This document shows, piece by piece, positions 14,218-31,398 of a DNA stretch of 32,000 nucleotides. The stretch is from Candidatus Woesearchaeota archaeon (GTDB lineage Archaea; Nanobdellota; Nanobdellia; Woesearchaeales; ARS49), in the NCBI GenBank assembly GCA_016188265.1, contig JACPID010000011.1, positions 1 through 32,000 on the forward strand, written 5' to 3'. The notes beneath the pieces were generated by a model. The model ran no database searches. It saw only the letters and a program-made list of their open reading frames with translations, and was not told the DNA's origin. The position numbers and the translations under genes are program-made. How positions within the stretch are numbered: the first letter of the stretch is position 1; the number at the start of each line of letters is the position of its first letter.

Positions 14218-14697
14218 ATGTGGTATGATATTATTGCTTCATCTTACAAAGAGCTTTATGGTGATGAACAAAAACAAAAAATAAAGTGGTTTTTAAAAAA
14301 TTTTAATTTTAAAAAAACGCACAAAATACTTGATCTAGCTTGCGGTTCTGGTCTTTTTAATGTTGATTCTAAGATTATTGGTTTGGATAAAAGCTTTCAG
14401 TTGTTAAAACAGTCTAAATTTTCAGTAATTAATGGCATTGCTGAACAACTGCCTTTTCAGAATAAATCTTTTGATGTTATTTTTTGCTTAAGTGCAATCC
14501 ACAATTTTGATAATCCTGAAAAATCCATAAAAGAAATGTTGAGAGTTGGAAGAAAATGGTTTTTGTTGTCTGTTCTTAAAAAATCTAAATTAAAACATAA
14601 GTTATTATGTCTTATTAAGAATTATTTTATTATTAAAAAAAAATATGAAGAAGAAAAGGACATATTGTTGGTTTGCAGTCAAAAATCAGCAGAATAG
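14218..14697 (+). CDS. class I SAM-dependent methyltransferase
   Basis: Motif I is 'ILDLACGSGLF', and 'FDVIFCLSAIHNF' is also present. The track start at 14200 is TTG; the first ATG is at 14218. Confidence 0.7.
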   Translation: MWYDIIASSYKELYGDEQKQKIKWFLKNFNFKKTHKILDLACGSGLFNVDSKIIGLDKSFQLLKQSKFSVINGIAEQLPFQNKSFDVIFCLSAIHNFDNPEKSIKEMLRVGRKWFLLSVLKKSKLKHKLLCLIKNYFIIKKKYEEEKDILLVCSQKSAE

Positions 14698-14715
14698 TAT
14701 TTTTAGTCTATAAAT

Positions 14716-14726
14716 CTTTATAAAAT
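14716..14726 (+). promoter_or_regulatory. TATA-like element
   Basis: 'ctttataaaat' lies 22-32 nt before the ATG at 14748. Confidence 0.3.
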
Positions 14727-14747
14727 AATCTATTCTTTTTTGTATTG

Positions 14748-15518
14748 ATGAGGGTGTTTTTGTATGATTTAATTTCAGCATTAGATCCTTTTAAATACCC
14801 GCATATAACACTGCGGTCTCCTTTTAAAGGATTTGCTTACATGTTCAAGCTTGTTTTATTTTTTACAATTATTTTATCCTTGTTTTATATTCCTGAAGTG
14901 GCAGATATTCCGCATGCACTTGAAAAGCAGGTTTCAAAAATAAAAATTTCAGATGTTAATGGTAAATTTCAAGTTACTGAACCTATTAGGTTTCCAGAAC
15001 AAAAACCAATAATCATAGTTGATACTAATGTTGATGAACCTTCAGAATCTGTTATGCTGTTTTTTTCAAAGAATTCTCTTTTTTACAATGGAAACAAGTC
15101 TGCTTATTCTGCTTTTCTTGACATGTCAAAGCCAGATAAAAATATTGTATCTTTTCTTCGCTTAATTGTTTTTTTAATTGCTCCATCTTTGTTTTTTTAT
15201 TTATTTTTGTTATTTTTCGTAAAATATTTTATTATATCTTTAGCTCTTGCACTTCTTATTGCATCTGTCCTTGACCTTACATCCTGGGCTGTTTCTTGGA
15301 AAAAATCACTAAATCTAGCTTTTTTTGCTTCAACTTGGTCTCTTCCTTTAGAAATATTGCTTTCTCCTTTCAAAATTTACTGGCTTGGGCCTATACTTAC
15401 AGTTGGTAAATTTACTTTATATGCATTGCCTATTTTTATTTACCTTATTTTTGCAGTATTTGCTCTTGTATGCATAATACGCTACCAGCAAGAAAAAACA
15501 AATATAGATATACCATAA
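14748..15518 (+). CDS. multi-pass membrane protein (possibly DUF1189-like)
   Basis: Several long hydrophobic segments are present. The N-terminal cytosolic 'LYDLISALDPFKY...FKGFAYMF' followed by a TM segment resembles DUF1189 from memory. Confidence 0.4.
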   Translation: MRVFLYDLISALDPFKYPHITLRSPFKGFAYMFKLVLFFTIILSLFYIPEVADIPHALEKQVSKIKISDVNGKFQVTEPIRFPEQKPIIIVDTNVDEPSESVMLFFSKNSLFYNGNKSAYSAFLDMSKPDKNIVSFLRLIVFLIAPSLFFYLFLLFFVKYFIISLALALLIASVLDLTSWAVSWKKSLNLAFFASTWSLPLEILLSPFKIYWLGPILTVGKFTLYALPIFIYLIFAVFALVCIIRYQQEKTNIDIP

Positions 15519-15928
15519 TGGCAGAATTTATTCTTTTATCATGTCGTGGATCTCATACCCATATTGGAAAAACTCATGATATTAAAGAAGTTGTGCCGAT
15601 TAATAATTTCATGACAGCATCAACTGAGCCTCTTGTTTATGCAATATCACTTAATAAAGATTTAATTGCAACAAAAATGATTTCTGAAACAAAAATTTTT
15701 GCTTTAAACTTTCTTTCTGAAAAATTTAAAGAAGCAGTTGTTGATTCTAGTAAGCACACTGGTGAGTTTCATGATAAGCTTTCTTTAATTAATTTAACAG
15801 AACAACCTACAGAAAAAATTCTAGATTGTTTTTCAATAAAAGAAGCTGAAAAAGTATTAGAGTGTGAAGTGATTCATGAATTTAGTTATGGAGATAGTGT
15901 TGTTTTTTTTGGAAAAGCGCTTAACTAG
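15518..15928 (+). CDS. flavin reductase-like (FMN-binding split-barrel) domain protein
   Basis: 'PINNFMTASTEPLVYAISLNKD...TKIFALNFL...HDKL' follows the flavin reductase-like domain pattern. The ATG at 15518 overlaps the upstream stop (ATAATG). Confidence 0.5.
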   Translation: MAEFILLSCRGSHTHIGKTHDIKEVVPINNFMTASTEPLVYAISLNKDLIATKMISETKIFALNFLSEKFKEAVVDSSKHTGEFHDKLSLINLTEQPTEKILDCFSIKEAEKVLECEVIHEFSYGDSVVFFGKALN

Positions 15929-18680
15929 TTTGTTCTACAATCCATAAATTCATCATATTTAAAAATTTATTAAGATCTGGTTCATTTATAACAATTGGTT
16001 TTGTACTGCAGGCAATATCACTGGTTATGTCAAAACCATATACTGGGCTTATTATGTTAACTTTAGGAAATTTATAACAATTTCCAGGTTTTCCTTCTAT
16101 AATGCATGCATCATTTTCATTTTTTCCTAAACAAACAAGATTTTCTTCTGGAAGTTCAGTATTGCAAAATAAACCAGTACTTGGATCATTTCGACTTATA
16201 AAATCACACATCCCTGTTACTCCTCTATTTTTACACAAATCTCCTGAATTGTAACAATCTGGCATTTTTAAAAATTCATCAAGTGAGCTTAGAGTTCCTG
16301 AAAACTCAATTTCTCCACTTAAAATAAGTTCTCTTAAAATTTCAGCATTTCTTCTATCTTGTTCAGAAGGCCATTTGTATGATAACGATCTTAATAGATC
16401 AAGTGTTTCATCAATGCTGTACTTAAGTGGTTTTTCCTCACAGTTTATGGTATAACTTAGCCCCCTGCCTCTTAAGTCAAACAGTGGCCGAGCATATGTT
16501 GATAGCCTTACTTCTATTACTGCCTTTCTATTGCAAATTCCATCTTCTCCTGATTCAGTTTTACATTTGTTTCCTTCATCGCTTCCACCTCTGCATCCTG
16601 GTGTGCTTCTGCTTATTTTGCAATGTAATCTTAAATCATTATTAGCAATATCTGTATAATCACAATCGCCTGACATCCCTTCTTTCTGGCAAAGATATCC
16701 CCATCTTTGACAACCGTCCAACTGAATGTAACAACTTAGTTTATCTTTTTTAAACGCATCAGTATAGCCACAATACCCTTTTTGGTCATTTATCTCGCAA
16801 GGATATCCTTCGCTATATGGATTGTCGCATTTACTTTTTTGCAGAAGTCTATTAATCAGATCTCCGCAATTTTCTTTTTCATGCAGTTCTTCTACTTTGA
16901 ATGGTTCATTGCAAACATAATTGCTGGCAGGAGGTATATAGTAACCTTCAGTTTTAAGGTCTACACAACAAATTCTTTTTTGTTTTGGAGTTTGTGCAGG
17001 CAAAATTTGAGTTGGTGTTACTTGGGCAGGGGTGTCGTCTGATATTGGTGTTACTGATACTTGCAGTTTCGGTGGCGCCTGAAATCCTACTTCTGGCAAT
17101 AAGCAAATGCCATCTTTACATCCGTGTTCACATTTAATAAGTTTCCAACTCCCTACATTTTTGAAATTTCTTTCTGTACAATAAAACTCTTGTACATATT
17201 TTACGCCTTCAATTTCTTCACAATAATCTGTGTGTTGTTTTGTGGCGCCTGATTCATCAGTCCAGCTTGTTGTTCCTTTTATTTCTGGATTGGAGCCACC
17301 ATCACTATCTTGACAAGTTTTGGGTTCTGGCTTGCATGCGCTGTTTTCACAACCCCACGTGCAGTATTTTGTTTTCACAGCCAGTTTATTATCTTGGCAT
17401 AAATATTCTTTTAAATCCTTTCCTACACAACTATCAGTCTCAGTATCTATCAGTTTGCAATCCCATTCACTTATACAACCTAATTTTACTCCTGTTGTTG
17501 TTCCTTTTACTTCAAATGCTTCACCATTATCAGAGTCATTACAAATATTATCTTTTTGACAGGTTTTTTTATCCCAATTCCAATAACAATTACTGCCTGA
17601 TTCGCGGCAGGAATTATAATCTTTATCAGAACACTTTGATTTTATATCTTTAACACATGCACCATTTTTACATGCATCTGGACAAGTTAAATCTTCAATA
17701 ACAATATTATTTCCTTGGCAGTAATGTTCTCTTAAAGTATTTTTATTTGTGCATGCATCTAGTCCGCCAGTTCTTATTCTGCAATCTTGTTCATTCGCGC
17801 AAATAGTTCTAAAACCAAATGTATGTCCTTGAACTTCTAAATCTTTTCCATTATCTGATTCAGAACAAGTTTGTGTGTCTGTGCAACTATTTGTTTGCTG
17901 ATCCCAGTAACATGTATGACTGTCAAGACATTCATCCATAGATTGTAATTGATTGCAAATTAATTTTGGTTGCGATTTACACTCTCCGTTTTCACAACCA
18001 TTTTCACATTGTTTTACTTTAAATGCAGCAAATATTTGATCTTCTCCTTTGTTAGGATGCGCACTACAATAATATTCAATCAAGCAAGGTCCTTCGTTAC
18101 TTGCATAGCTTCCAACAGAACCAGAACAAAGTGTAGTGCATGTATCTTTATGTGGTTTAACATTTTTTGGTATAGGATCCCACCAAGCAACAACCCCTGT
18201 AGTTTCTCCTGCAATATCATAATTTTCTCCATTATCAGTATCGGTGCAAACTATTGGCTCAGTTCTACACTCTCCATTTTCACAACCATATTGGCATTTG
18301 TATCCTTCATGAATATATTGCCCGGTATTTTCCCAATAGTTTGGCGGACAAAAGTTTTCAATTAAATAACAATTATCTCCTGCGCAGCTTGAAACTTCTT
18401 TACCTCTGTCAGAAACAATATGTCCATCCCATAAAAACCCTGGATTAGCAATGCAAAAATCAGGATGATCAAATCTGTCAATTACTCCGCTAACAACTCC
18501 TTTTATATCATAATTTTTTCCTCCATCAGTATCAGTGCATTGTGCTGTTAATGTTGGTGACATTGCAACTTGTAATCCTGTAGGAGAAAGTACAGAATTC
18601 ATTACAAAAATACCAGCTAGTGCAATAAGAATTATAATTGAAACATACAAGTAATTGTATTTACTTTTTTTTAATACCAT
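15921..18680 (-). CDS. 919-aa N-terminally anchored Cys-rich modular surface protein
   Basis: The N-terminal TM is 'YVSIIILIALAGIFVM'. I count ~70 Cys by hand. There are five 'C-x-D-[ST]-D-[GN]-G ... C-x-x-G-C-x-[ND]-G-x-C' modules. Two 'C..C..CYW[DN]..C' spacers follow, then a Pro/Thr/Gln linker and 4-5 small four-Cys modules. Confidence 0.8.
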   Translation of the reverse strand: MVLKKSKYNYLYVSIIILIALAGIFVMNSVLSPTGLQVAMSPTLTAQCTDTDGGKNYDIKGVVSGVIDRFDHPDFCIANPGFLWDGHIVSDRGKEVSSCAGDNCYLIENFCPPNYWENTGQYIHEGYKCQYGCENGECRTEPIVCTDTDNGENYDIAGETTGVVAWWDPIPKNVKPHKDTCTTLCSGSVGSYASNEGPCLIEYYCSAHPNKGEDQIFAAFKVKQCENGCENGECKSQPKLICNQLQSMDECLDSHTCYWDQQTNSCTDTQTCSESDNGKDLEVQGHTFGFRTICANEQDCRIRTGGLDACTNKNTLREHYCQGNNIVIEDLTCPDACKNGACVKDIKSKCSDKDYNSCRESGSNCYWNWDKKTCQKDNICNDSDNGEAFEVKGTTTGVKLGCISEWDCKLIDTETDSCVGKDLKEYLCQDNKLAVKTKYCTWGCENSACKPEPKTCQDSDGGSNPEIKGTTSWTDESGATKQHTDYCEEIEGVKYVQEFYCTERNFKNVGSWKLIKCEHGCKDGICLLPEVGFQAPPKLQVSVTPISDDTPAQVTPTQILPAQTPKQKRICCVDLKTEGYYIPPASNYVCNEPFKVEELHEKENCGDLINRLLQKSKCDNPYSEGYPCEINDQKGYCGYTDAFKKDKLSCYIQLDGCQRWGYLCQKEGMSGDCDYTDIANNDLRLHCKISRSTPGCRGGSDEGNKCKTESGEDGICNRKAVIEVRLSTYARPLFDLRGRGLSYTINCEEKPLKYSIDETLDLLRSLSYKWPSEQDRRNAEILRELILSGEIEFSGTLSSLDEFLKMPDCYNSGDLCKNRGVTGMCDFISRNDPSTGLFCNTELPEENLVCLGKNENDACIIEGKPGNCYKFPKVNIISPVYGFDITSDIACSTKPIVINEPDLNKFLNMMNLWIVEQTS

Positions 18681-18689
18681 GCAACTCTT

Positions 18690-19505
18690 TTAATTGTAGA
18701 TATTAGGATTAACTTCTATTTCAAATCTTAATGTTGCAGCTCCGCAATTAGGGTATGTTCCTGCTGTGTTTGGTTTGCATTGGCAGGTGTATTGTTTTTT
18801 TGCATCCATTAATCCTGAATCCCAGCACCCCGGAGTATCTTTGAATGCTGCACATGACCATTTACTGTTTCCTGTAGCTCCACGGCATAATGTTGCTACA
18901 TCTACTGTTGGTTCTCCTTTAAATCCTGTCATTCCCATACCTCTAGTATCTGGTAATGGGTGTGCTCCTCCTGGTGGTGGAGGTGGTGCTGGACCAAATG
19001 GTGATTTTTTTGTGTATCCTCTAGTTGCTCCAGGTCCTGAAATCACGTATTCTCTAAATGGTAATTCTTCTTGTGTTAGCATTGTTCTTTGTTCAGCAAA
19101 ATAAACTCCTGCCATTACTTCAGGTTTTTCTTTTTCAGGCTTTTTTGTTGTTAATTCTTTGCAAGCTTTTCCTTCACTAAATTTAGCTTTTTCAGGGCAC
19201 ATGTTTGTACATGTTGCTCTTGTTAGATCATCTGCTTTTAAATCACCACATTCGCAACATCCTGTTGGTTCTGGTTCAGGCTCTGGAGCAGTTGGTTTGT
19301 ATGATTTTAGTTGTTGTGATTCTTTTAATACATTTTGTCTTACTTGAGAAATTAGTTGAGGCACATTTAAAGTTGTGTCTTTAAAAACTGGAAAAACTGC
19401 AAATCCAAAATGAGATTGTCCTGTTAATTGTGTTGTCAATAATAATCCAAGAAGTGCAAATCCTGCAACTAGAAGAAATATTATTAATTCTGTGCTTGCC
19501 TTCAT
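18690..19505 (-). CDS. 271-aa secreted or anchored Cys-rich protein with a possible type IV pilin-like (class III) signal
   Basis: The N-terminus is 'MKASTELIIFLLVAGFALLGLLLTTQLTG'. 'PEPEPEPTGCCECGD', poly-Pro 'GPAPPPPPGGAHPLP' and a C-terminal Cys-rich segment follow. Confidence 0.7.
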   Translation of the reverse strand: MKASTELIIFLLVAGFALLGLLLTTQLTGQSHFGFAVFPVFKDTTLNVPQLISQVRQNVLKESQQLKSYKPTAPEPEPEPTGCCECGDLKADDLTRATCTNMCPEKAKFSEGKACKELTTKKPEKEKPEVMAGVYFAEQRTMLTQEELPFREYVISGPGATRGYTKKSPFGPAPPPPPGGAHPLPDTRGMGMTGFKGEPTVDVATLCRGATGNSKWSCAAFKDTPGCWDSGLMDAKKQYTCQCKPNTAGTYPNCGAATLRFEIEVNPNIYN

Positions 19506-19612
19506 TAATCACACCTTTTTTTATTACTTATTATTTTTACTATTTAAGTATTTTGTTACTATTTTATAATGGTCATGAATGTTTTTAATTGTACACATCT
19601 ATAATTGTTTTC

Positions 19613-20653
19613 ATGAAGTATTTTTTTTTATTTTTTTTGATTTTTATTACAGCGTGCTCTTCTTATAAGTCTTGGAATAGTGATGCTCAATGCTATATTC
19701 AACTTAATGATGTTTATAATAAATTAAGTGAAAAATATGGTGAGAATGTTTTTGATCTTAGTATTGAGCAAGAGATTCAATCTGGATTTCTTCCAATTGA
19801 ATCATTGGATTGTGTTACAAAAGATAGCCAGCAAGGAGTATGCAAAAAACTTGTATTTGATAAACAGTATTTTTGGAGTTGTGTTGCTGTTGATAAAAAA
19901 GTTATTGTTAAACTTGAAATTATAAATTTAGGTGCTAAGACTAAAATAATTGTCACAGATACTTCACCAAAAAAAAATGATTTGTTTATTGACAAACAAT
20001 TAATACCTTTAACACCAATAAGTTCTATTCGTGCAGAAGCAACAATCACACTTCAAGATGAAAAAATCTGTGAAGATAAACCTCAAGGAGTGCAATACCC
20101 TTCAGGGCCTTTAACCCGTTATCCTAATAATTTCTTTTTTTGCCCTCCAAAAGATGGTGAATCACTTTTAACATATAAAGATCAAGTTATTTTATTGGAA
20201 TTTTTCAAAAAAGAACCAGTTAAAATACCTTTTTGCACTATTTCAGTAAATTCAGGCAATACATTGTATGTTAAAGTGAAGTTTTCTGATGAGATAACTT
20301 ATGATTTTGATTTTGAAAAAAACAAATGTATTGTTGATCAAAAAGGCAAGGTATTTAGTCTTTTGCTGAATCCTCCTAAATTAGCAGAGCAAGAATTAAA
20401 CAAAGATCAATGTTATGGTGTTTTAGCTGGAAATATTGAAAGTGTTGGCTTTGAAATGAAAAAAACAAACTGTCCTTTAGGTTGTGATGACGTTACTGGT
20501 TTGTGTAAAACAAAATATGAAGAATGGTGTTGTGTTGTTGAGTTGGCGGGCGGAAGAACATCATCAGTAATAGCTTCAGGCCCTGAAGATAAATACTGTA
20601 CTGGAAAAATTAAAAAATCAACAACAGGAAGTTGTGAAGAATTTATACATTGA
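19613..20653 (+). CDS. Cys-rich secreted protein with lipobox-like signal
   Basis: 'MKYFFLFFLIFITAC|SS' is present. The track start at 19589 is TTG; the ATG is at 19613. The C-terminal 'EEWCCVVELAGG' motif is shared with neighbouring genes. Confidence 0.7.
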   Translation: MKYFFLFFLIFITACSSYKSWNSDAQCYIQLNDVYNKLSEKYGENVFDLSIEQEIQSGFLPIESLDCVTKDSQQGVCKKLVFDKQYFWSCVAVDKKVIVKLEIINLGAKTKIIVTDTSPKKNDLFIDKQLIPLTPISSIRAEATITLQDEKICEDKPQGVQYPSGPLTRYPNNFFFCPPKDGESLLTYKDQVILLEFFKKEPVKIPFCTISVNSGNTLYVKVKFSDEITYDFDFEKNKCIVDQKGKVFSLLLNPPKLAEQELNKDQCYGVLAGNIESVGFEMKKTNCPLGCDDVTGLCKTKYEEWCCVVELAGGRTSSVIASGPEDKYCTGKIKKSTTGSCEEFIH

Positions 20654-20689
20654 AGTTTTAGATTTTTTTAATAGAAAAGTTTATACATA

Positions 20690-20715
20690 AGTAGTCTACT
20701 TTAAAGTAGACTACT
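20690..20715 (+). terminator. perfect 10-bp hairpin after the 354-aa gene, preceded by a T-run
   Basis: 'agtagtctac-tttaaa-gtagactact' forms the hairpin. The T7 run 'gattttttta' lies at 20661-20670. Confidence 0.4.
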
Positions 20716-20875
20716 ATGGAAAGAACTTATTTTGTTAACAGGCAAAACTAAACTATATGCATTATTCAGCAAAAATGGTTTTAAAAAAGAATTAAAAGAT
20801 TATGCAAAGAAAGATAAAAATATTGTTCTTTATGATCTCAAAAAAATAAAAGAAAAGCTTTTAAAGAATAAGTGA
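20705..20875 (+). pseudogene. C-terminal remnant of an archaeal ATPase (DUF234-type) gene
   Basis: The frame without an ATG encodes '..WKELILLTGKTKLYALFSKNGFKKELKDYAKKDKNIVLYDLKKIKEKL'. This resembles the '..ilFSksGFt.el.e.a...nv.L.dl' C-terminus of that family. Only ~56 codons remain. Confidence 0.35.
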
Positions 20876-21274
20876 TAAAATAATCTTAGAAGGCTTAAAA
20901 GGGTTGAATGGTGAAATTATTAAAAAATCATGCATTAAAGTTTTTTTTAGTTTTTGCTATTTTACTTGTTTTTTTAAGTTCAGCTTTTGCTCATAAACTT
21001 ATTCCAGAAGAACCGCAATCACCACATGAAAGCTATACTCTAACTGGGAAAGTTGTTGCTGAACAAGTTCTTTCATGTGGTGAGTCTAGAGGTGTTGAAA
21101 GATATGGAGTAATACAAGTTCCTTTGTCTAAAGGTTTAGCTGAAAATCTTGGTAAAAGATTTAAAAGTTTTATTTTTGAAAAATATTCTAAAGAATTTTA
21201 TGTTCCTGAAAAAATTAAGGCTGCGTGTGTTGAAGCTAAAAAAATGTGCGTAAGTGATATGTTAAAAGTAACTT

Positions 21275-21294
21275 CACAATTCTCCACAATTCTC
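21275..21294 (+). repeat. exact 10-bp tandem duplication (cacaattctc x2) that causes the frameshift
   Basis: 21275-21284 is identical to 21285-21294. This was read directly from the sequence. Confidence 0.9.
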
Positions 21295-21961
21295 TTGTCA
21301 AAATGCTTGTCCTCGAAGTGTTGGTGCTATTAGTTATTCTGATTGTACTGTTGCAGTTCAAACGCGTGATTCTGATGGTTATCCTGAAATGCTTACTTCA
21401 AGTGTTTCATGTTCTAATAAAGTAAGTTGTGGAGAAGTTCAAGGGCCACCACCTGGAATACCTAGTGTTGAACTTCCTCTAGGCGAACCAACGCCTGAAG
21501 AGGAAAAACCAAAAGCAGTAGCGAGAGAAGGAAGACTTCCAGAACCAAAAATAAAAAAGCCACCTATTTTTGAAAAACCAACTGTTGAATCTTTAAAAAT
21601 TAATTGTGGTTCAACAAAAGCAGGTGTTGGTGTTAGTAAAGTTAGTTTTGGCGGTTATACTGATGTTAGAAAAGTTTATGAAGATTATCCTGATATAGCA
21701 AATGTTGTTAAAGCATCTAGTAAAAGTGATGCTTTAAACCAAATAAATTATTATTATATATGTTCTGATGATAGATGTGAGAAAACATACAAGATTTGCT
21801 CTGACCCTTTGATTACAACATTGCCTGAAAATGATAATATGGTTGTAAGTTCAAAATGTTCTTTTTCAGTTACTTGTTCTGAAATAAGTGAACAACCAAC
21901 AATTCCTGTTTTAAGAACTGAACAAGAAATTCCTCCTTTCACACCTTCATTCTGGCCGTCT

Positions 21962-22001
21962 GGTCCTGCGCCTGCTGGTGAAGGTGAAACTTCTGGAAAA
22001 G
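21962..22001 (+). repeat. 40-nt block shared with 26153-26192 (1 mismatch)
   Basis: 'ggtcctgcgcctgctggtgaaggtgaaact[t/c]ctggaaaag' encodes 'GPAPAGEGET[S/P]GK' in paralogues A and C. Confidence 0.85.
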
Positions 22002-22171
22002 AATTTTATACACCGTATTGTGGTGATTTTAAGAAAGATTTAGGTGAAGATTGTGATCCTCCTGGTAGTGTTAGTGTTGATGGTAAGTTTATTTGTGGTT
22101 CTGATTGTCAGTGGTTTGTTTCTTCAATAGTTGGAGTTCCTGGTCAGGTTTACGGTCCTTTACCTCAGCCT

Positions 22172-22365
22172 GTTTGTGGTAATGGTGTAAAGGAAGGTGC
22201 TGAGGTTTGTGATGGTAGTGTTGGTTGTGCTAGTGGTCAGTCTTGTTCTAATGATTGTAAGTCTTGTTTTACTCCTGCTATTAGTTTGCCTAGCGCTCCT
22301 CCTGTTTGTGAAGAAGGTGAGGATGTGCGTTATTGTGTTTGCAACATGTTTAATAGTTTGGGTCA
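22172..22365 (+). repeat. composite repeat, copy in paralogue A (exact 63 nt + 60-nt variable cassette + exact 71 nt)
   Basis: 22172-22234 is identical to 24341-24403, and 22295-22365 is identical to 24464-24534. The 60 nt in between have equal length in both copies but only about half are identical. Confidence 0.9.
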
Positions 22366-23309
22366 CTGTTGTCCTGCTAATACTTACTGGAATGGTGTTC
22401 AATGCGCAGCTTATCTTGCTGGAGGTCCAACAATAATTGGAGCGCCACCAACACCCACGTATACTTATGCAAGGGTTGTTGCAAATCTTTTTAGTGCTAC
22501 TGGAAAAAGTATTATGAGTTTTACTGGAATGCAGTCTTTTGCAGCAAAAGGAGAAGGCGCTGGAAGGCAAGTTCTTGATCCTGCATGTGCTCCTACTGTT
22601 TTAATGAGTCGCGTTAAAGAAGTTGAGTGTAGTGTTGGAGAAACTAAACTAGAAAAAGGCTGGGTTTGGGATACTTGTTATGAATGTGTTAAAACACCAC
22701 TATGGCCTGCACAGTGGAGAAGTACTGATATGAGCCGTTGTGAAGGACAAAAACCTCCTGAAAAAGAAGTTGAAAAACCACGAGCTCCTCTGGGAGAAAG
22801 ACCACCAGAAAGAAGATCACCAACTCCTCTGGGAGAACTGCCTGGTCGTCCAGGAAGTGGATTACTCCCTCTTGAAGGATCAGAATGTTCAGAAGGTGAT
22901 ATAAAATGTGAAAGTGAAGATGGCGGGTGTTATTATCAAACTTGTGTTAATGGAAAGTTTACAAGTAAAGATTATGTTTCAACAAGTTGTGAGGAGTTTC
23001 TTCCTGGAAGAGTATGTTCTTCAAAAACAATTAAACCACAAACTTCCCCTCCGGGTGAAAGACCATCACCTCCTCCTGCACCTAAAGAAGAACCTAGAGG
23101 ATTACCACTTTCCGGAGAACCAGCAGAAAGACGTGTGAGTGATGAAAAAGTTTGCAAAAACGGCGCTACAAGAAAGTGTAAGATTGTAAAAGGTACAGAA
23201 GGCGCTGTCTGTAATTATGAGGTTTGTAAGAAAAATCAATGGGTTTATGACAGTGTAGTTATACCTCCTGATGTTGTGTATGAAGAGTACTGTTCATGTT
23301 AAAGCTTAT

Positions 23310-23349
23310 AGAAAACGAAATAAATAATAGGACAATAGTTTCGTTTTCT
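23310..23349 (+). terminator. 11-bp perfect hairpin downstream of paralogue A
   Basis: 'agaaaacgaaa' (23310-23320) pairs with 'tttcgttttct' (23339-23349) across an 18-nt loop. Confidence 0.35.
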
Positions 23350-23350
23350 A

Positions 23351-23398
23351 AATAGTACGCGCCATAAGAGTGTCCTACAAATTATGGCGCGTACTATT
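23351..23398 (+). promoter_or_regulatory. 17-bp perfect inverted repeat overlapping the first ATG of paralogue B
   Basis: 'aatagtacgcgccataa' (23351-23367) pairs with 'ttatggcgcgtactatt' (23382-23398) across a 14-nt spacer. The core is GC-rich in an AT-rich genome, and the ATG at 23384 lies inside the 3' arm. Confidence 0.4.
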
Positions 23399-25153
23399 AA
23401 GCAAAAGTTTTTGACAGGTCTGGTTATGAGATTTCCAAAAATAACTTATTTGATGATTTTATTTATTTTACTAGTTTTGTTTTTTTTAAGCAGTTGCAGT
23501 ACTCCTTGTGTTGAAGAAGGTCTTGAAAAGTGTTTTGGCACTAGAATGTTAAAGTGTGAAAATGGCTTATGGGCTTCTACTGGAAACTTTTGTGAGTTAA
23601 TGCCTGAACAAATCTCAAAAGAAGCGCCAAAGATTATAGTCTCAGAATATACAAAAACAAGCATTGCAATAACAAATTTATATGGTAGTGAACAGCAGGA
23701 AAAATCCTTTATTTCAGAAGTTGATGTTTTTAGTTCTAAGCCTGGAAAAATAAGTATTATTGATGAAGCAAATTTAATTGCTGGTGAAGAAAATTTAGGA
23801 GTTTGTGAAAAAGTTAAAGGTGTTCAAAAGCTTAAAGCAAATTTTGTTAAGTTAGATGCTCCTGAATTAGGAGTTCCTCAATATACTATTATACATTTGC
23901 TTGAAGAGCAAAAAGAAATATTGTATGAGTGCCCTCCAAATACTATTTTAAGAAAATCTGAAGCAACTGGCGAATTAGTATGCTATCCTGAAACAGTTTC
24001 TAAACCTGAATTAATAATTGAAATACCTGAACTTCTAACACAACAACCACAATTTCAACTTCCTGAATTAGTAGTGCCTGTTAAAGTTATTCCAGGAGTG
24101 TTTGAACCGCCTAAAATTATAAGCATAACTCCAATAACTCCAAGCATAACTCCTAGTATAATTCCAGAAATTCCTGAAGTAAGTCAATATTGTGGTAATG
24201 GTATAAAAGAGGATGCTGAGGTTTGTGATGGTAGTGTTGGTTGTGCTAGTGGCCAGAGTTGTTCACTGGACTGTTCTTATTGTTTTACTCCTGCAATAAC
24301 TGGACCTATTCCTGGAACTCCTCTTCCTCCTGCTGTTGCTGTTTGTGGTAATGGTGTAAAGGAAGGTGCTGAGGTTTGTGATGGTAGTGTTGGTTGTGCT
24401 AGTCCTGCTCAGTGTAGAAATGATTGTCAGCAGTGCATAACTCCTGCTATTTTAGTACCCCATGCTCCTCCTGTTTGTGAAGAAGGTGAGGATGTGCGTT
24501 ATTGTGTTTGCAACATGTTTAATAGTTTGGGTCATTGTTGTCCTCTTAATACTTACTGGAATGGTGTTCAATGCGCAGCTTATTTTGCTGGAGGTCCAAT
24601 AATAGTTGGAGTGCCACCAACACCAGATCTTGCATATGCAAGGGTTGTTGCAGATGTTTTTAGCGCTACTGGAAAAGTTGTTGCTGAACAAATTTCTGAA
24701 AAAAAAGAAGTTTATTATTGTTGCACTGACCAGCATGCTGGCAATTACATTGTTGAAACTAAAGATGTTCTTGAATGTATTAATTCTCATTCTTCTCTAG
24801 TTCTTGACAAGTGCGATGTTGGACCTCAAGCAATGGGCGCTTCAACTTTAAAAGAAGCTAAAGATCTTTGTTTGTACACTTATGCTTGTGTTGAAGATAA
24901 AATCCTCAAGTATTGTGGAGCAGAATATGTCAATAAAGCGCCAGCCGACAATTATCCTATAAAAGAGAAAGTTTATTGTCCGAAAAAAGTTGTTATTGCA
25001 ATTCCTCAAGAAGATGTAATCATAAACAAAATACTGGCTGTAAACAAAATAATGGTTGAATACCGGCCTATAAAATACATCGCTGTTTTGCAGCCAGTAA
25101 TTGTAGTCTTAGATAAAGAATGTGCTGAAAAAATAAGCGCGTTAAGACAATAG
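23384..25153 (+). CDS. Cys-rich secreted modular protein (paralogue B) with lipobox-like signal
   Basis: 'LMILFILLVLFFLSSC|STPC' is the signal, and the alternative start M15 lies at 23426. Two 'CGNG..E.AEVCDGSVGCAS' repeats are followed by 'PPVCEEGEDVRYCVCNMFNSLGHCCP' and then 'YARVVADVFSATGKVVAEQ'. Confidence 0.8.
   Translation: MARTIKQKFLTGLVMRFPKITYLMILFILLVLFFLSSCSTPCVEEGLEKCFGTRMLKCENGLWASTGNFCELMPEQISKEAPKIIVSEYTKTSIAITNLYGSEQQEKSFISEVDVFSSKPGKISIIDEANLIAGEENLGVCEKVKGVQKLKANFVKLDAPELGVPQYTIIHLLEEQKEILYECPPNTILRKSEATGELVCYPETVSKPELIIEIPELLTQQPQFQLPELVVPVKVIPGVFEPPKIISITPITPSITPSIIPEIPEVSQYCGNGIKEDAEVCDGSVGCASGQSCSLDCSYCFTPAITGPIPGTPLPPAVAVCGNGVKEGAEVCDGSVGCASPAQCRNDCQQCITPAILVPHAPPVCEEGEDVRYCVCNMFNSLGHCCPLNTYWNGVQCAAYFAGGPIIVGVPPTPDLAYARVVADVFSATGKVVAEQISEKKEVYYCCTDQHAGNYIVETKDVLECINSHSSLVLDKCDVGPQAMGASTLKEAKDLCLYTYACVEDKILKYCGAEYVNKAPADNYPIKEKVYCPKKVVIAIPQEDVIINKILAVNKIMVEYRPIKYIAVLQPVIVVLDKECAEKISALRQ
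24215..24252 (+). repeat. third exact copy (38 nt) of the CGNG-repeat core
   Basis: 'gctgaggtttgtgatggtagtgttggttgtgctagtgg' is identical to 22199-22236. Its first 35 nt are identical to 24368-24402. Confidence 0.85.
24341..24534 (+). repeat. composite repeat, copy in paralogue B
   Basis: This is the partner of 22172-22365. High similarity with scattered SNPs continues to ~24625 (A: ~22455). Confidence 0.9.
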
Positions 25154-25195
25154 TGATGTGGTGAAGTTTCACACATAAAAATTTATAAGTAATAA

Positions 25196-27610
25196 ATGTT
25201 ATTTGTTGTTAAAGTGCATAAAAAGAGGAAAAAAAGCTGTAAAAGCAGTAATAATGCTTTGAAAAACAAATATGTTAAGCCTTTAATAGTTTTAACTGTT
25301 TTATTTTTATTTATTGGATCTATTTTTTTATTTGAATCAACTGGTAATACATTACAGGATACATTTGATAATTTGTTTCAACAATCTGTTAAAAGAGCAG
25401 AAATATCCCCTTTTGATCCTGATCATTTTCAAACTCAATTTCTCAAAGGCAGTCCTGAAGATTTAAGAAATGAAGTTTCAGGAACTTTTACTCCTGATAG
25501 AAAAGGTGGTGGAATTTTTAGTAATAGAGTTAGTCCACATTACCCTGTTGATGGAATGATAAATATTCTTTTTGCTCCAAAATCAGATTGCCCAAGAAAA
25601 ATAATTACTACTAGAGATCCTGTTGAAACATCTTTTAGTCTTGACCTGGCTTATGCAATGACTCTTCCAGCTTTAACAGAAATGCCTTTGGTTGTTTTAC
25701 CTGAAAAAGAAGAAAAAAAAGAAGCTTTTGCTATTGGTATTCCCTCTTTTGGCTGTAGAATTAGTGTTGAAAAAATAAAAAATAATTTTGTTGTTAAAAC
25801 ACCAGATCAACAATTTGATCTTCCAGGATCTGATCAAGAAGGCTGCATTAAATCTTCTGCTGGTGAAGTTGCTGTGCCTCGGGGATTTAGTGGTAAAACA
25901 GGAGTTATTAATCTTGATGGTCCTTGTCCTCAAGGAATTGATGCTGTTATTAGCCAACTTGGTTTTAAACCTATTGGCAAAATTAAAACTTGTAATCCCG
26001 GAGAATATTGTTCTAATGGAAAATGCCTTTCAAGAAGTGTTATTAGGCAAGCAAAACCAGTAGCAGCTCCTGATTTAGTAACAGTAGCGCTGCCACCAAA
26101 AGCAGCAGAACAGGTAGAACAGGCTATACCTGCTCTAAGAATAGGTCTTCCAGGTCCTGCGCCTGCTGGTGAAGGTGAAACTCCTGGAAAAGGATTTTAT
26201 GTACCAGTTTGTGGTAATTTACAGATAGATTTCGGTGAAGAGTGTGAGACTGGTAGTGGTACTTGTCCAGAAGGTTTTACGTGTGGTTCTGATTGTAAGT
26301 GTAAGAAACCTGTTTGTGGCAATAGTAAGGTTGAGGCAGGTGAACTTTGCGATGGTGATGCTAGTTGTAAGATAAGCATAAGTGATTGTAAATATGATCC
26401 TAGTTGTCTTTCAGCGGATATAAAATGTGTTAATAATTGTGGCAGCTGTCTTTTTCCTGAGTGTAAAGACGGTCAGAAAGTAAAGTGGTGTCGTTGTGTA
26501 CCCCCACTCGCTATTTCACCCCCAATCGATCTTTCAAATACTAAGTTATGCACTTCACAAAAAATTAGTTCTGTTTGTGGTAATGGTATTAAAGAGAGTG
26601 GTGAAAAGTGTGAGGCGGATGGTGATTGTCCAGATGGTTCTGTTTGTGATGTAGGTACTAGTAGTAACACTTGTGTTTGTGTATTTGTACGCGAACCTGT
26701 ATACTACGTACCACCTCCATCTCCTGATTTAGTAACAGTAGCAAAGCAACCATTAGTTTGCCCTGATGGTTCTTATAAAGTATGGGAGAATGGTAAAGAA
26801 GTATGTAAATATTATTATGGTATAACTCCTGAATATACCCCGACAGCTCCACAAACAGGAATTATTATTGTAGGAGGACCAGCTGCAAACGCACCTTATT
26901 ATGCGCGAGTTGTTGCACCATTATTTACAGGAATGCAAACTGCAAATAATTGTCCTGATAAAATATTTTCTGAAGAATTTGAAGAAAATACTAAAGAAGA
27001 ATGTAGTTCTGAATCTGAAGCAATAACTAAAAATGAAATCTTAACAAGTCGTCGTTGTGGAGAATTATGCGGCGGTATTAATTGTAGATACAAACCTCCA
27101 GCAATAGTATTTGATTTAAAATATGAAGATAATACTTGTAAAATTGATATAAAATGTGATTGTGAACCTGCTGATGAAGAACCAACAACATTTCCTGGCG
27201 CTCCTAAACCTCCTATTGTGCCAATTCCAACTGGAGAGCCTGTTCCTCCAGAAACAGAACCTATTCCAGAAAGTGTAGTTGATGGTGGTGGTGGAATAAA
27301 TGAAGGTAATGACCCTAACTGTCCTGTTGAGGAAAAAGTAAAACCATCTTGTGAATTTAGTAAGCAACTAAAAGAATTAAGTGATAAACCTATAGGAGAT
27401 AAAAGTGTTTGTGATTCTGCAAACACTATTGAAAAATTACAGCTTAATTGTGAAGAAGCTTGTAATGCTGATTCAGAATATAAAAAGAAGCGAGAAACGT
27501 GTATTTGTTCACCTAAATTTCAAAAAACAGTTTCAGAATGTAAAGAAATACAATCAGGTATTTGGCAGAGTACAGTTTCAGGATCATGTTCTTGTTCATG
27601 TAGGTCGTAA
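25196..27610 (+). CDS. 804-aa N-terminally anchored Cys-rich modular protein (paralogue C)
   Basis: The basic N-terminus is followed by the TM 'PLIVLTVLFLFIGSIFLFESTGNT'. Three CGN..GE.C repeats are present, along with 'YARVVAPLFTGMQ'. The internal 22-nt exact repeat 26067-26088 = 26721-26742 encodes 'PDLVTVA'. Confidence 0.8.
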   Translation: MLFVVKVHKKRKKSCKSSNNALKNKYVKPLIVLTVLFLFIGSIFLFESTGNTLQDTFDNLFQQSVKRAEISPFDPDHFQTQFLKGSPEDLRNEVSGTFTPDRKGGGIFSNRVSPHYPVDGMINILFAPKSDCPRKIITTRDPVETSFSLDLAYAMTLPALTEMPLVVLPEKEEKKEAFAIGIPSFGCRISVEKIKNNFVVKTPDQQFDLPGSDQEGCIKSSAGEVAVPRGFSGKTGVINLDGPCPQGIDAVISQLGFKPIGKIKTCNPGEYCSNGKCLSRSVIRQAKPVAAPDLVTVALPPKAAEQVEQAIPALRIGLPGPAPAGEGETPGKGFYVPVCGNLQIDFGEECETGSGTCPEGFTCGSDCKCKKPVCGNSKVEAGELCDGDASCKISISDCKYDPSCLSADIKCVNNCGSCLFPECKDGQKVKWCRCVPPLAISPPIDLSNTKLCTSQKISSVCGNGIKESGEKCEADGDCPDGSVCDVGTSSNTCVCVFVREPVYYVPPPSPDLVTVAKQPLVCPDGSYKVWENGKEVCKYYYGITPEYTPTAPQTGIIIVGGPAANAPYYARVVAPLFTGMQTANNCPDKIFSEEFEENTKEECSSESEAITKNEILTSRRCGELCGGINCRYKPPAIVFDLKYEDNTCKIDIKCDCEPADEEPTTFPGAPKPPIVPIPTGEPVPPETEPIPESVVDGGGGINEGNDPNCPVEEKVKPSCEFSKQLKELSDKPIGDKSVCDSANTIEKLQLNCEEACNADSEYKKKRETCICSPKFQKTVSECKEIQSGIWQSTVSGSCSCSCRS

Positions 27611-27620
27611 TTGTATTAAA

Positions 27621-28238
27621 ATGATTCTTCAATTCCTTGGTCATGCTTCTTTTAAGCTGAAAACAAAACATACTGTTTGCTATATTGACCCTTATGTTAG
27701 TCCTGAAGTTAGTTTGGAAAAAGCTGATCTTATTCTTATTTCTCATGATGATTTTGACCATTTTAGTGAAGAAACAATTAAAAGAATTGAAACTCCTGAA
27801 ACAATTGTTGTTTCTTCTCCAAGAGTGTGTTCACGGTTGTACGCGTGCCAGCTTTTGCGCCCTCACTTTACTAAAACATTCAGAGATTTTTCTGTTACTG
27901 CAACAGAACTTTTTCACAAAGGACAACCTTACGGCATAGGATTTATAATTAAAGCAGAAGATAAAACAATTTATTTTACTTCAGACACAGAATTTAAAGA
28001 ATCTTTAAGTAAGCATAAAGCTGATATTTTAATTATTTCTGTTAGCGGTACTACAACTATGAATTATAAAAAAGCAGCAGAATTCAGCATTAAATTACAG
28101 CCTAAAATTGCTATACCTATGCATTTTGGAAAAATAGAAGGGCATCAGCATGATGCTGAATATTTCAAAGAATTAGTAGAAGCGCATAATAAAACAGAAG
28201 TTAGAATTTTAAATAAAGGAGAAGAAATTCTGCTTTGA
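27621..28238 (+). CDS. metallo-beta-lactamase-fold hydrolase (UPF0173-like)
   Basis: 'MILQFLGHASFKL' and 'LISHDDFDHF' are present, and the length is ~205 aa. The 27405 start in the track would overlap paralogue C and is rejected. Confidence 0.7.
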   Translation: MILQFLGHASFKLKTKHTVCYIDPYVSPEVSLEKADLILISHDDFDHFSEETIKRIETPETIVVSSPRVCSRLYACQLLRPHFTKTFRDFSVTATELFHKGQPYGIGFIIKAEDKTIYFTSDTEFKESLSKHKADILIISVSGTTTMNYKKAAEFSIKLQPKIAIPMHFGKIEGHQHDAEYFKELVEAHNKTEVRILNKGEEILL

Positions 28239-28643
28239 TTAACCGGATAGTTCTATTGCTAATCTTTTCTCGTCTAAAGGGAACATTCTTGCTATTTTTT
28301 TCGGGTGTATCTTAAGAAATTTAGCTATTTCAGGAGGTATTCTAAATACCAAAGAATTTCCTGATTTAACTACTGTAACTTGTTTTTCTAAACCAAATAA
28401 TTTTCTTTTTTTAACTTCACATTCAATTTCTTCAACAGTTTGATCACTTAAAAACTCACTTCCACAAGAAGTACATATTTCACAAGCTCTTTCGCCAAAA
28501 TCATGTCCGAAAAATTCAACAGAACAAAAACTTTTTTTAAGTTTTCCTCCGCAACTGCAAGGATAATCAAGTATTTCTTCCACAATTCTCACCATATCTT
28601 TATTGTAACAGGGTATATTTTCTTTAATTCTATTTTTTTCCAT
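28239..28643 (-). CDS. Zn-ribbon + AbrB/SpoVT-like fusion protein
   Basis: The Zn-ribbon part is 'CSCGGKLKK...CEICTSCGSEF' and the AbrB part is 'VTVVKSGNSLVFRIPPEIAKFLKI'. It overlaps the cysS 3' end by ~55 nt (less if M17 is the start). Confidence 0.6.
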   Translation of the reverse strand: MEKNRIKENIPCYNKDMVRIVEEILDYPCSCGGKLKKSFCSVEFFGHDFGERACEICTSCGSEFLSDQTVEEIECEVKKRKLFGLEKQVTVVKSGNSLVFRIPPEIAKFLKIHPKKIARMFPLDEKRLAIELSG

Positions 28644-30031
28644 CTAACACCGTGTGGTGTATCTTCAAGAAGAATTCCTTTTTTTTGTAATTCTGCTCTT
28701 ATATCATCACTTTTTTTCCAATCTTTTTCTTCGCGGGCTTTTTCTCTTTTATCAATTAGATTTTGTAATTCAGTTGAAAGTTTTTCTTCACCGACCTTTT
28801 CTAATCCTAGTCCTAAAACTTTGTCAAACTCTAGCATGCATTCTCGAACTAATTCAGCATCTTTCTTACTAATGTCTTCAAAAAGCGTATTTATTTCTTT
28901 TACTAGCTCAAAAACAGTTGCAAGTGCACTTGAAACTTCAAGATCATCATCTAATGATTTTGCAAATTCTTTTTTTGTTTTACTTATTAGCTTTTTAACT
29001 TCTAGATTAGTCTTGTTTGCATGGGCTTCTTTTAATCTTAACATAAAATCTTGCAATCTTTGAATAGCATTTTTTGATGCTTCTATGCCTTCAAAAGTAA
29101 AATTTAATTGTTGTCTATAATGCGTTGATAATAATACATATCTGACAGCTAATGGTTCATGTCCTTTAGCTAAAACATCTCTCAATGTGTAAAAATTTCC
29201 AGCTGATTTTGACATTTTTTTACCATCAACAACAAGCCACTCGTTATGCAACCAGTACTTTACAAAAGTTTTTCCTGTTGCCCCTTCTGATTGAGCTATT
29301 TCATTTTGATGATGTGGAAAGATTAAATCAACTCCTCCAGTATGCATGTCGAAGCTTTCTCCTAAGAATTTCATGCTCATAGCACTGCACTCAACGTGCC
29401 AGCCAGGACGCCCTTTTCCAATATAAGTCTCCCAGAATACATCACCATCTTTTTCATCCCAAGATTTCCATAATGCAAAATCTTGAACATGTTCTTTATC
29501 ATATTCATCAGCACTTACTCTTTCGCTTGCACCAGCTCGTAATTTTTTCAGATCAATATTTGCTAATCGTCCATATTTTTTGAACTTTTCAACACTATAG
29601 TAAATACTTCCATCTTCTGCTTTGTAAGCACGCCCTTTTTCTAAAAGTTTATTAATTAATTCCACCATTTCAGGAATTGTTTCTGTAGCTTTTGGAAAAA
29701 CATCTGCAAATTCAATATTGAGCATTTTTACATCTTCCATAAAAGCATTTGTGTATTTTTCAGTAAATTCCTTTAAAGAAACTCCAGATTTTTGTGAATC
29801 TCTGATTGTTTTATCATCTACATCAGTAATGTTCATTACGTGTTTAACAGAATAACCTTTATATTTCAAGTATCTTTTTAGCAAATCTGCAAAAACATAA
29901 GATCTAAAATTTCCAATATGTGCATAATTATAAACTGTTGGTCCGCAAGTATACAGTTTAACATTTCCTTTTTCCAAAGGCTTAAAAACCTCTTTTTTTC
30001 TTGTTAATGTGTTATAAAATTTTAAAGGCAT
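28589..30031 (-). CDS. cysS: cysteine--tRNA ligase
   Basis: The 'HIGN' motif ([10 protein letters not shown]) and the 'KMSKS' motif are both present. The length is 480 aa. Confidence 0.95.
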
Positions 30032-30052
30032 ATTTGATGTTATAAAGATAAT

Positions 30053-30062
30053 ACTTATAAAT
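30053..30062 (+). promoter_or_regulatory. TATA-like element in the divergent cysS / DUF1385 intergenic region
   Basis: 'acttataaat' lies 23-32 nt before the ATG at 30085. Confidence 0.3.
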
Positions 30063-30084
30063 CTTTATTTCTTTTAGTAAAAGC

Positions 30085-30930
30085 ATGAAAGAATATGTAG
30101 GAGGCCAGGCAGTTATTGAAGGAGTTATGATGAGATCTTCTTCTCATGTTGCTACAGCAGTTAGAAAACCTGATGGCAAGATTGTTATTAAAAAACAAGA
30201 ATTTGAATCTATTACAAAAAAAAACAAATTATTATCTTTGCCAGTGATTCGCGGCATTATTTTTCTTTTTGAAATGATGATTTTCGGAGTTAAAACTTTG
30301 ATGTGGAGTGCTGAACAACAAGAAAATAATAAAAAACAAAAATTATCTACATCTGAGCTTTTTTGGACTTTATTTATTTCATTTACTATTACAATACTTT
30401 TATTTATAGTGCTGCCTTTTTATCTTACTAAGATTTTTATTAAAACTCCAACAACAGGATTTCACTTGCTTGATGGCTTGTTTCGCTTAAGTGTTTTTTT
30501 AGGCTACATTATTATTCTTGGTTTTTCTAAAGATGTTTGCCGAATTTTTCAATACCATGGCGCAGAACACAAGACAGTAAATTGTTATGAATCAAAACTT
30601 TCTTTAACAATTAAAAATGTAAAAAAGTTTCCTACAGCACACCCTAGATGTGGAACAAGTTTAATTGTTGTTGTAATAGCATTAAGCATTGTTATTTTTG
30701 CACTAATAAAAACTCCAATTTGGTATGTTAATCTTGCACAAAGAATTATTTTTATCCCACTAATAGCTGGTCTTGGCTATGAAATTGCAAAATTTTTAGC
30801 ATTAAGATATGATAAAAAGTTTTGGTTTTGGCTTACCAAACCAGGAATGTGGACCCAATCCTTAACAACAAAAGAACCTGATGAAAAACAAATAGAAGTT
30901 GCAATTAAAGCATTAAAGAATGTTATTTAA
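30085..30930 (+). CDS. DUF1385-family membrane protein
   Basis: 'VGGQAVIEGVMMRS' at the N-terminus, 'YHGAEHK' and several TM segments are present. Confidence 0.7.
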   Translation: MKEYVGGQAVIEGVMMRSSSHVATAVRKPDGKIVIKKQEFESITKKNKLLSLPVIRGIIFLFEMMIFGVKTLMWSAEQQENNKKQKLSTSELFWTLFISFTITILLFIVLPFYLTKIFIKTPTTGFHLLDGLFRLSVFLGYIIILGFSKDVCRIFQYHGAEHKTVNCYESKLSLTIKNVKKFPTAHPRCGTSLIVVVIALSIVIFALIKTPIWYVNLAQRIIFIPLIAGLGYEIAKFLALRYDKKFWFWLTKPGMWTQSLTTKEPDEKQIEVAIKALKNVI

Positions 30931-31042
30931 TTTTAGTAAGCTTTATAAAGTCTTTAATCTTTGCTATGTTCTAGAATAACAATATCTAGAACTTTGAAGT
31001 GTGTATTCTTTGTTCTTTTTTTGTTATCGGAGGAAGAGAAAT

Positions 31043-31225
31043 ATGAGAGAATTTAACAGAGGCGGAGGTTACAGAAGAGATTTTGGAAGAGATTCTTCTA
31101 CACCACCTCAAAAGTTTAAAGCAGTTTGCACTGACTGTAAAGCAGAATGTGAGGTTCCTTTTGAACCAAAACAAGGCAGACCAGTACGTTGCATGCCATG
31201 TCATAAAAAATTTAAAGGATACTAG
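31043..31225 (+). CDS. small CxxC-x17-CxxC zinc-finger protein with RGG-like N-terminus
   Basis: 'CTDCKAECEVPFEPKQGRPVRCMPC' has exactly 17 residues between the two Cys pairs. 'NRGGGYRRDFGRD' forms the N-terminus, and the SD 'ggagg' lies at 31029-31033. Confidence 0.65.
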   Translation: MREFNRGGGYRRDFGRDSSTPPQKFKAVCTDCKAECEVPFEPKQGRPVRCMPCHKKFKGY

Positions 31226-31306
31226 ATTCCTTAGATAAAAATTATATTTTTTTCTTTTTTTTTTCAAAACCTTTTTAAGTAATTCTTGTTTTTTTGGATT
31301 AAGTTT

Positions 31307-31398
31307 GGGCCCGTAGCTTAGCCTGGTGGAGCGCTCGACTGATAACTGCATCAAGGCTAGATATCGAGAGGTCGAGAGTTCAAATCTCTCCGGGCCCA
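31307..31398 (+). tRNA. tRNA-Ile (anticodon GAU) with an 18-nt intron at the canonical 37/38 position
   Basis: The acceptor stem is gggcccg/cgggccc. The D arm is gctt-agcctggtgga-agc-like. The anticodon stem is ctcga...tcgag with loop c-t-GAT-a-a interrupted by ~'actgcatcaaggctagat'. The T arm is gagag-ttcaaat-ctctc and the discriminator is A. Confidence 0.85.

Follow-up and report, generated by a model that had tools for sequence, protein, structure and literature searches.

DPANN archaea spend their lives attached to other cells, and obvious candidates for host contact are the large cysteine-rich proteins of their surface; to our knowledge, the diversification of the genes encoding such proteins has hardly been documented. 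A stretch of 32,000 nucleotides (nt) from Candidatus Woesearchaeota archaeon (GenBank assembly GCA_016188265.1, contig JACPID010000011.1, positions 1 to 32,000 of the forward strand; this whole stretch is the window, and its numbering is used throughout) raises the question of how these genes change. Two neighboring paralogous genes on the forward strand, A (21389-23302, an open reading frame (ORF) of 637 residues as it stands, with 41 cysteines) and B (23384-25153, 589 residues and 35 cysteines, with an N-terminal hydrophobic segment ending in LSSC), share two blocks of DNA that are identical to the last base, and these blocks flank a short cassette that has the same length in both genes and a very different sequence. 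How did a piece of coding sequence remain, or become, so different between two flanks that are the same? The original prediction, made by a model that saw the letters and a list of their ORFs, pointed to recent gene conversion or cassette exchange rather than to simple duplication and drift.

In this work we analyzed the shared tract, its relationship with the other copies of the same repeat, and the genes that carry it. A conversion event at the level of the tract is well supported. If the explanation that we favor for the cassette is correct, the locus is a clean small case in which tandem paralogs exchange short tracts and a loop-coding segment stays distinct.

Results and discussion

The tract shared by A and B

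The tract starts at position 22170 in A and at 24339 in B, and the offset between the two genes is constant (2169 nt) across both exact blocks. The first block (22170-22234 in A, 24339-24403 in B; 65 nt) encodes the first half of a repeat characterized by the residues CGNG (VCGNGVKEGAEVCDGSVGCAS). It is followed by the 60-nt cassette (22235-22294 in A, 24404-24463 in B), which codes for the remaining, second half, four conserved cysteines included, and shows 27 mismatches (55% identity); its translation is GQSCSNDCKSCFTPAISLPS in A and PAQCRNDCQQCITPAILVPH in B, and the cysteine positions align. The second block (22295-22365 in A, 24464-24534 in B; 71 nt) encodes APPVCEEGEDVRYCVCNMFNSLG. After this block, a tail (22366-22507 in A, 24535-24676 in B) maintains in-register similarity for 142 nt, with 18 mismatches and exact runs of 37, 15, 12, 18 and 12 nt, and the similarity ends abruptly at 22507/24676, after the FSATGK codons. 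In B the whole tract (24339-24676) includes the second repeat unit and a distal cysteine-rich segment; the two proteins are 82% identical over the 112 residues encoded by it.

These limits agree for the most part with the original prediction: the second block was described exactly, the first one with two bases less (63 nt), and the interval of equal length, with about half of its positions matching and its cysteines kept, is as described. The sharp stop at FSATGK was also correct, and the similarity that precedes it is longer than the ~90 nt proposed.

The tract consists of one CGNG repeat, similar to DUF4215, and a cysteine-rich segment found on this contig alone; the cassette encodes the part of the repeat that varies, its presumably loop-rich second half, placed between fixed cysteines. 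Its length is equal in A and B because the cysteine spacing of the repeat is fixed.

A core of 36 nt of this repeat occurs three times in the window without a mismatch, against zero expected occurrences. The third copy, which the prediction placed at 24215-24252 with 38 nt, does exist and is slightly larger; it is located in B at 24214-24252, and is identical to A over 39 nt (22198-22236) and to the second unit of B over 37 nt.

Three levels of divergence within the tract

The mismatches between A and B are not evenly distributed. When the 45 mismatches were permuted over the 338-nt tract, in the manner of GENECONV, the longest run reached 71 nt or more in 0.05% of the trials (P = 5e-4), and both runs together (at least 71 and at least 65 nt) in 0 of 100,000 trials (P < 1e-5). 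The blocks had no mismatch in 136 nt, the tail had 18 in 142 and the cassette had 27 in 60 (chi-square P~1e-16), so that the uniform divergence that would have contradicted the prediction was not observed, and three density classes were found instead. The same classes are apparent in the Nei-Gojobori estimates of nonsynonymous and synonymous divergence (dN and dS): both are 0 in the two exact blocks; dN is 0.14 and dS is 0.11 in the tail; and the values are 0.64 and 0.91 in the cassette. With the cassette excluded, the dS of the tract is ~0.07. The proposal of recent gene conversion rather than duplication and drift thus holds for the tract of ~340 nt as a whole, given its sharp ends and this low dS.

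The nature of the changes also differs between tail and cassette. Tail mismatches are biased towards transitions (11 of 18), whereas those of the cassette are dominated by transversions (7 transitions and 20 transversions), a transition share that is the level expected from saturation. Among the codons whose amino acid was replaced, 9 of 10 in the cassette changed at two or three bases (25 changes in all), as against 4 of 10 in the tail. Where the amino acid is unchanged, synonymous differences were found in 0 of 44 codons of the blocks and in 3 of 38 codons of the tail, a comparison that is underpowered (P = 0.095).

The tail contains a second small hypervariable patch (22457-22465 in A, 24626-24634 in B), where TYT in one protein corresponds to DLA in the other; three adjacent codons accumulate seven nucleotide changes there between near-identical flanks. 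The dN/dS ratio of the tail is ~1.3, and this value together with the patch indicates that the module is not under strong purifying selection.

A third repeat unit and a patchwork of affinities

B carries another copy of the repeat immediately upstream of the tract. This first unit (B1, 24188-24340, forward strand) and the one in the tract (B2) are tandem CGNG copies with a period of 153 nt; B1 is 84% identical to the unit of A over 108 nt, and B1 and B2 are 93% identical over 61 nt. The cassette of B1 is nearer to that of A than to that of B2. In the alignment of A, B1 and B2 there are 35 informative sites arranged in 11 runs (runs test P = 0.008); at 16 sites A equals B1 and differs from B2, and at 6 sites B1 equals B2 and differs from A. 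Along the unit, the affinity of A is with B2 in the first half, with B1 at GQSCS, with B2 at ND, with B1 at CF, and again with B2 from APPV onward.

A sensitive self-comparison of the window revealed that such patches are not restricted to these three units. A third paralog, C (25196-27610, forward strand, 804 residues and 53 cysteines), which follows B and has the same central scaffold with 26-34% amino acid identity, shares with A a patch of ~150 nt (21962-22113 in A, 26153-26301 in C, forward strand; 79% identity) that includes the first CG(D/N) unit and, ahead of it, a sequence starting with GPAPAGEGET, for which an exact run of 30 nt codes. In C there is also a 25-nt repeat (24 of 25 positions; 26064-26088 and 26718-26742) that encodes APDLVTVA ahead of each of two CGNG units. 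A last patch links B with F, a short ORF upstream of A: 27 nt encoding TGKVVAEQ (21043-21069 in F, 24668-24694 in B, forward strand) are identical at 25 positions. In F this sequence is the start of the mature protein, and the copy in B starts at the 3' limit of the tract shared with A and reaches slightly past it; the patch may mark a junction left by recombination, or a motif that is conserved. In view of its position, recombination at the short homology ACTGGRAAA could have produced the 3' junction of the tract. The sequence ACTGGRAA (TGK/TGM) is found again in A at ~22524, and its equivalent in C is FTGMQ.

The family is therefore a patchwork in which A-C, B1-B2, A-B1 and F-B patches coexist. 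On this point the original prediction, which considered A and B unrelated at the DNA level outside the blocks, has to be corrected: A also matches B1 and C, and the proteins share a central scaffold with conserved cysteines.

Possible origins of the mosaic: ectopic gene conversion or rapid local diversification

The explanation that we regard as the probable one is non-allelic gene conversion among the tandem paralogs, with a cassette that either escaped it or was overwritten. Genes A, B and C are 2-4 kb apart and carry short identical stretches, which would allow non-allelic recombination between them. A tract of ~340 nt, that is, one repeat unit and the distal segment, would have been copied recently between A and B, and the copying would have erased synonymous and nonsynonymous differences alike; the cassette would have kept, or regained, a much older sequence. 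Two routes can be envisaged. The conversion tract could have been discontinuous, with the cassette in the gap; short and discontinuous conversion tracts have been described in Sulfolobus. Alternatively, the cassette could have been overwritten when another unit acted as the donor in a second, short conversion. The maintenance of two cassette versions would be favored if there were selection for distinct surface loops. The direction of the event, the number of events and the role of selection are inferred.

The other explanation that deserves attention is that a single recent copy of ~340 nt, produced by duplication or by conversion, was followed by a very fast diversification of the cassette; we consider it possible, with a probability clearly below that of the former. 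The cassette would have changed by point mutations and by in-frame indels that compensate each other, with positive selection acting on exposed loops; neither a second conversion nor a separate ancestry of the cassette would be required. Several observations are in its favor and weigh against the conversion of the cassette. The affinities among A, B1 and B2 are incongruent, and this pattern can also be read as the tree ((A,B2),B1), the B2 branch having accumulated many clustered changes; the 16 sites shared by A and B1, as against the 6 shared by B1 and B2, are compatible with this tree. The cassettes of A and B1 are moderately alike, and their longest exact run is 15 nt; moreover, a recent donor is visible for neither cassette. 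A gapped alignment accounts for the GQSC/PAQC difference by an insertion of 3 nt, a deletion of 3 nt and one substitution, and the dN/dS of the tail and its clustered patch also count in favor of this explanation. The tests restricted to synonymous differences are not significant either: among codons with an unchanged amino acid, 2 of 10 in the cassette and 3 of 82 elsewhere show a synonymous difference, again an underpowered comparison (P = 0.09), and part of the heterogeneity may come from the blocks being more constrained at the protein level. Given that these strict tests remain at P~0.09, local rapid diversification of the cassette stays a live rival.

Against it, 10 codons would have to accommodate 25 changes, whose transition/transversion ratio is saturated, on a background dS of ~0.07. 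In addition, 136 unchanged nucleotides adjoin the cassette, which makes stepwise mutation an unlikely source of its divergence. The sequence SPAQC of the B2 cassette recurs as SPAYC (in the context CTSPAYC) in a distant homolog, P0006, and this recurrence hints that the SPA.C form could be old and not newly arisen.

Ectopic gene conversion has precedents in surface-protein families, among them the paralogous merozoite surface antigens of Plasmodium (PMC10919680) and the Gal/GalNAc lectin genes of Entamoeba (PMC3125142). The locus described here resembles these families in that diverged neighboring paralogs share a near-identical tract with abrupt ends and an excess of long identical runs, the homogenization may extend to synonymous sites, the three copies show mosaic affinities, and the proteins are extracellular as far as can be predicted. 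It differs from them in the host, a DPANN-type archaeon, in that the proteins are orphans, and in the presence of a 60-nt island of old divergence inside the tract. Tandem surface-protein genes are well known to undergo gene conversion, so the conceptual gain is small; the locus adds one more example of an established process and does not represent a new kind of system.

The genes and their proteins

Genes A, B and C are arranged in tandem and in the same orientation, and they share a scaffold with conserved cysteines. Its elements are, in order, a proline-rich linker, two or three CGNG units, a further cysteine-rich segment and the sequence '...GGPxIxGxPP..YARVVAxxF'; the unit follows the pattern C-G-[ND]-G-x3-E-x2-E-x-C-D-G...C-x4-C-x3-C-x2-C. 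Outside the tract, A and B are ~30% identical in amino acids in the neighboring repeat unit, and elsewhere they give no nucleotide alignment. The low identity of the scaffold as against the 82% of the tract indicates that A, B and C are old paralogs, on which the A-B tract is a recent overlay. No Pfam or NCBIfam family was matched at E<=0.01 by A, B, C or their neighbors, and an AlphaFold2 model of the central module, built from an alignment of three sequences, was unusable (predicted local distance difference test score of 36.8).

The region between 15.9 and 27.6 kb contains six genes encoding cysteine-rich proteins (4-8% cysteine), each with one N-terminal hydrophobic segment; from these segments and the cysteine content (6-7%), the six proteins are very probably extracellular. 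In the case of A, the hydrophobic segment is present in a fused F-A protein and not in A alone. F (20908-21333, forward strand, 141 residues) is an N-terminal fragment of gene A that includes a signal-peptide-like hydrophobic segment, and gene F-A is frameshifted by a 10-nt tandem duplication (CACAATTCTC twice, 21275-21294, forward strand); when one copy of CACAATTCTC is deleted, F and A are fused into a single ORF of 794 residues. A is open over 637 codons, which leaves three options for the frameshift: it arose recently, it can be reversed, or it is an error.

This arrangement brings to mind the cassette-based antigenic variation of Neisseria (pilE/pilS) and Borrelia (vlsE), where a surface protein likewise has a variable segment between conserved stretches. 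According to this possibility, the exact blocks would be anchors at which loop cassettes are swapped, with B as the expressed gene and the frameshifted F-A as the silent donor. The conserved anchors around a variable cassette, the possible variability in the population of the block between 21105 and 27637, discussed below, and the separation of A from its signal peptide by the 10-nt duplication, with 637 codons nonetheless open, are in line with it; as in the bacterial systems, one of the copies (A) may not be expressed. In contrast with those systems, there are only three units in the window and no array of promoter-less cassettes, both copies lie in long and different ORFs, and no silent-cassette archive of the pilE/pilS type was seen in the window, in protein searches with A, or in the scans of GTDB genomes and JGI metagenomes, which revealed no further close copies. 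We therefore consider programmed variation of this kind very improbable, and the same facts lend no support to the cassette exchange of the original prediction as a mechanism. There is likewise a slim chance that F-A, B and C form an island variable in the population, in which short anchors would drive repeated swaps of loop-coding cassettes and F-A, frameshifted and intact in other respects, would serve as the silent donor for B. If this were true, anchor-driven swapping would be an archaeal analog, directed to host interaction, of bacterial cassette-based antigenic variation.

Diversity-generating retroelements, which occur in DPANN archaea and in bacteria of the candidate phyla radiation (CPR), were considered as well. 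The resemblance lies in the DPANN host and in a surface protein with a localized hypervariable stretch beside an identical repeat. This candidate was rejected: no reverse transcriptase was found in Pfam scans of the larger ORFs of the window, the copy that would act as the template is coding, and the mismatches are not specific for adenine, since all four bases are involved (T15 C13 A9 G8 in the copy of A, and C12 A12 T11 G10 in that of B).

Between A and B there is a hairpin (23344-23405) with a stem of 17 bp, a predicted energy of -30 kcal/mol and a z of -5.7, and the ATG of B falls within its 3' arm; it may be a terminator or an element of translational control. Further palindromes are located at 20657-20752, between genes E and F, and at 7411-7464. 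The same cluster of secreted cysteine-rich proteins includes a protein of 919 residues and 70 cysteines, without family match, encoded on the reverse strand (15921-18680). Its gene contains repeats with a period of ~290 nt (17954-18010 and 18245-18298; 18206-18248 and 18497-18539), and C.NGC.NG.C modules recur in the protein.

The repeat and its relatives

The CGNG unit is similar to DUF4215 (PF13948) and to the 'myxo_disulf_rpt' family (TIGR02232) in the motif C-G-[ND]-G-x3-E-x2-E-x-C-D-G, in the spaced cysteines that follow it, and in its occurrence as tandem units of large secreted proteins. In contrast to members of these families, the units of the window score well under the curated cut-offs (8.8 bits against PF13948, with a cut-off of 27, and 8.8-10.2 bits against TIGR02232, with a cut-off of 20.8), and the distal segment that accompanies them has no relative. 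The unit is thus a divergent relative, and not a scored member, of the 'myxococcal' cysteine-rich acidic repeat. A HMMER search with A against 1.84 billion representative proteins returned 20 matches, restricted to residues ~257-297, which correspond to the CGNG unit. These proteins contain up to 14 units each; several also carry DUF4215, DUF11, SdrD_B or cohesin domains, and some of them exceed the DUF4215 threshold. A scan of the GTDB genomes likewise gave matches to the CGNG unit alone, in Myxococcota, CPR, Omnitrophota and Nanoarchaeota.

For the distal cysteine-rich segment (APPVCEEGEDVRYCVCNMF...YARVVA), no relative was found by HMMER or in the JGI metagenome scans. A homolog search with A recovered no protein other than A, B and C, all from this contig, two JGI metagenome scans gave no close copy, a sequence search of the PDB gave nothing meaningful, and no orthologs of A, B or C were found in the databases searched. 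The literature on a 'cysteine-rich repeat / phage AttP' (PMC7379824; bioRxiv 10.64898/2026.06.07.730663) was also considered and set aside, given that it refers to a different, eukaryotic repeat.

The DNA encoding the distant homolog P0006, located on an unrelated contig (L013), contains two tandem units; 54 nt of their first half match exactly, and of the 10 differences between them 9 lie in the second half. This is the same anatomy observed for A and B.

Independent contigs and the reliability of the assembly

The contig is a metagenome assembly, and it could be argued that the exact blocks derive from repeats that were collapsed, or polished against each other, during its construction. The same organism is present in independent assemblies (k=31, Logan) of two sequencing runs. 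On the left side, contigs from SRR12113424 (L016, window 13281-21105, 99.99% identity) and SRR12113422 (L017, window 16480-21105, 100%) both end at exactly 21105, inside F. On the right side, a contig from SRR12113424 (L014, window 27637-31333, 100%) ends 27 nt past the stop codon of C, and another from SRR12113422 covers 28386-31334 (L015, 99.76%). The assemblies thus halt at 21105 and 27637 and leave the region between these positions uncovered, and no repeat of the window is present at either position. The exact D and cysteinyl-tRNA synthetase (CysRS) products were found in these runs, and the contigs bearing D also carry matches to G and E. No record was found of the exact products of F, A, B or C, nor of two fragments predicted for the k=31 contigs; gene products that are cut, such as the one of 66 residues on L016, are not indexed by the homolog search, so that the absence of a fragment does not amount to the absence of the gene. 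These breaks hint that the block 21105-27637 may be shattered, or variable between strains, in the population.

The interrupted coverage and the lack of records for these products elsewhere are compatible with an artefact, and other properties of the tract speak against this origin. Both genes remain in frame through the blocks and keep their cysteine spacing; the blocks, of 65-71 nt and with unique flanks, can be placed by ordinary reads of 150 nt; the identity of the tail decays gradually, with transition-biased single-nucleotide differences, as is typical of real divergence; and an exact first half followed by a variable second half is also present on the unrelated contig L013. We consider, in consequence, that an assembly or polishing artefact is highly unlikely.

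Genomic setting

The window corresponds to an archaeal chromosome of ~32% G+C, with genes for PAC2, Elp3, FKBP26, FtsZ, an Spt5-NGN protein adjoining L11, and CysRS. The closest CysRS among 5.8 billion proteins is 70% identical, and the matches named 'Candidatus Woesearchaeota' are 64-65% identical, which tentatively makes the organism a DPANN-type, Woesearchaeota-like archaeon; no synteny was observed with the relative that has the closest CysRS. At the right end of the window, a tRNA gene of 92 nt (31307-31398) was missed by ARAGORN and is supported by an Rfam match (59 bits); it is probably intron-bearing, in keeping with an archaeal origin. The Logan contigs break within this gene, at 31333/31334.

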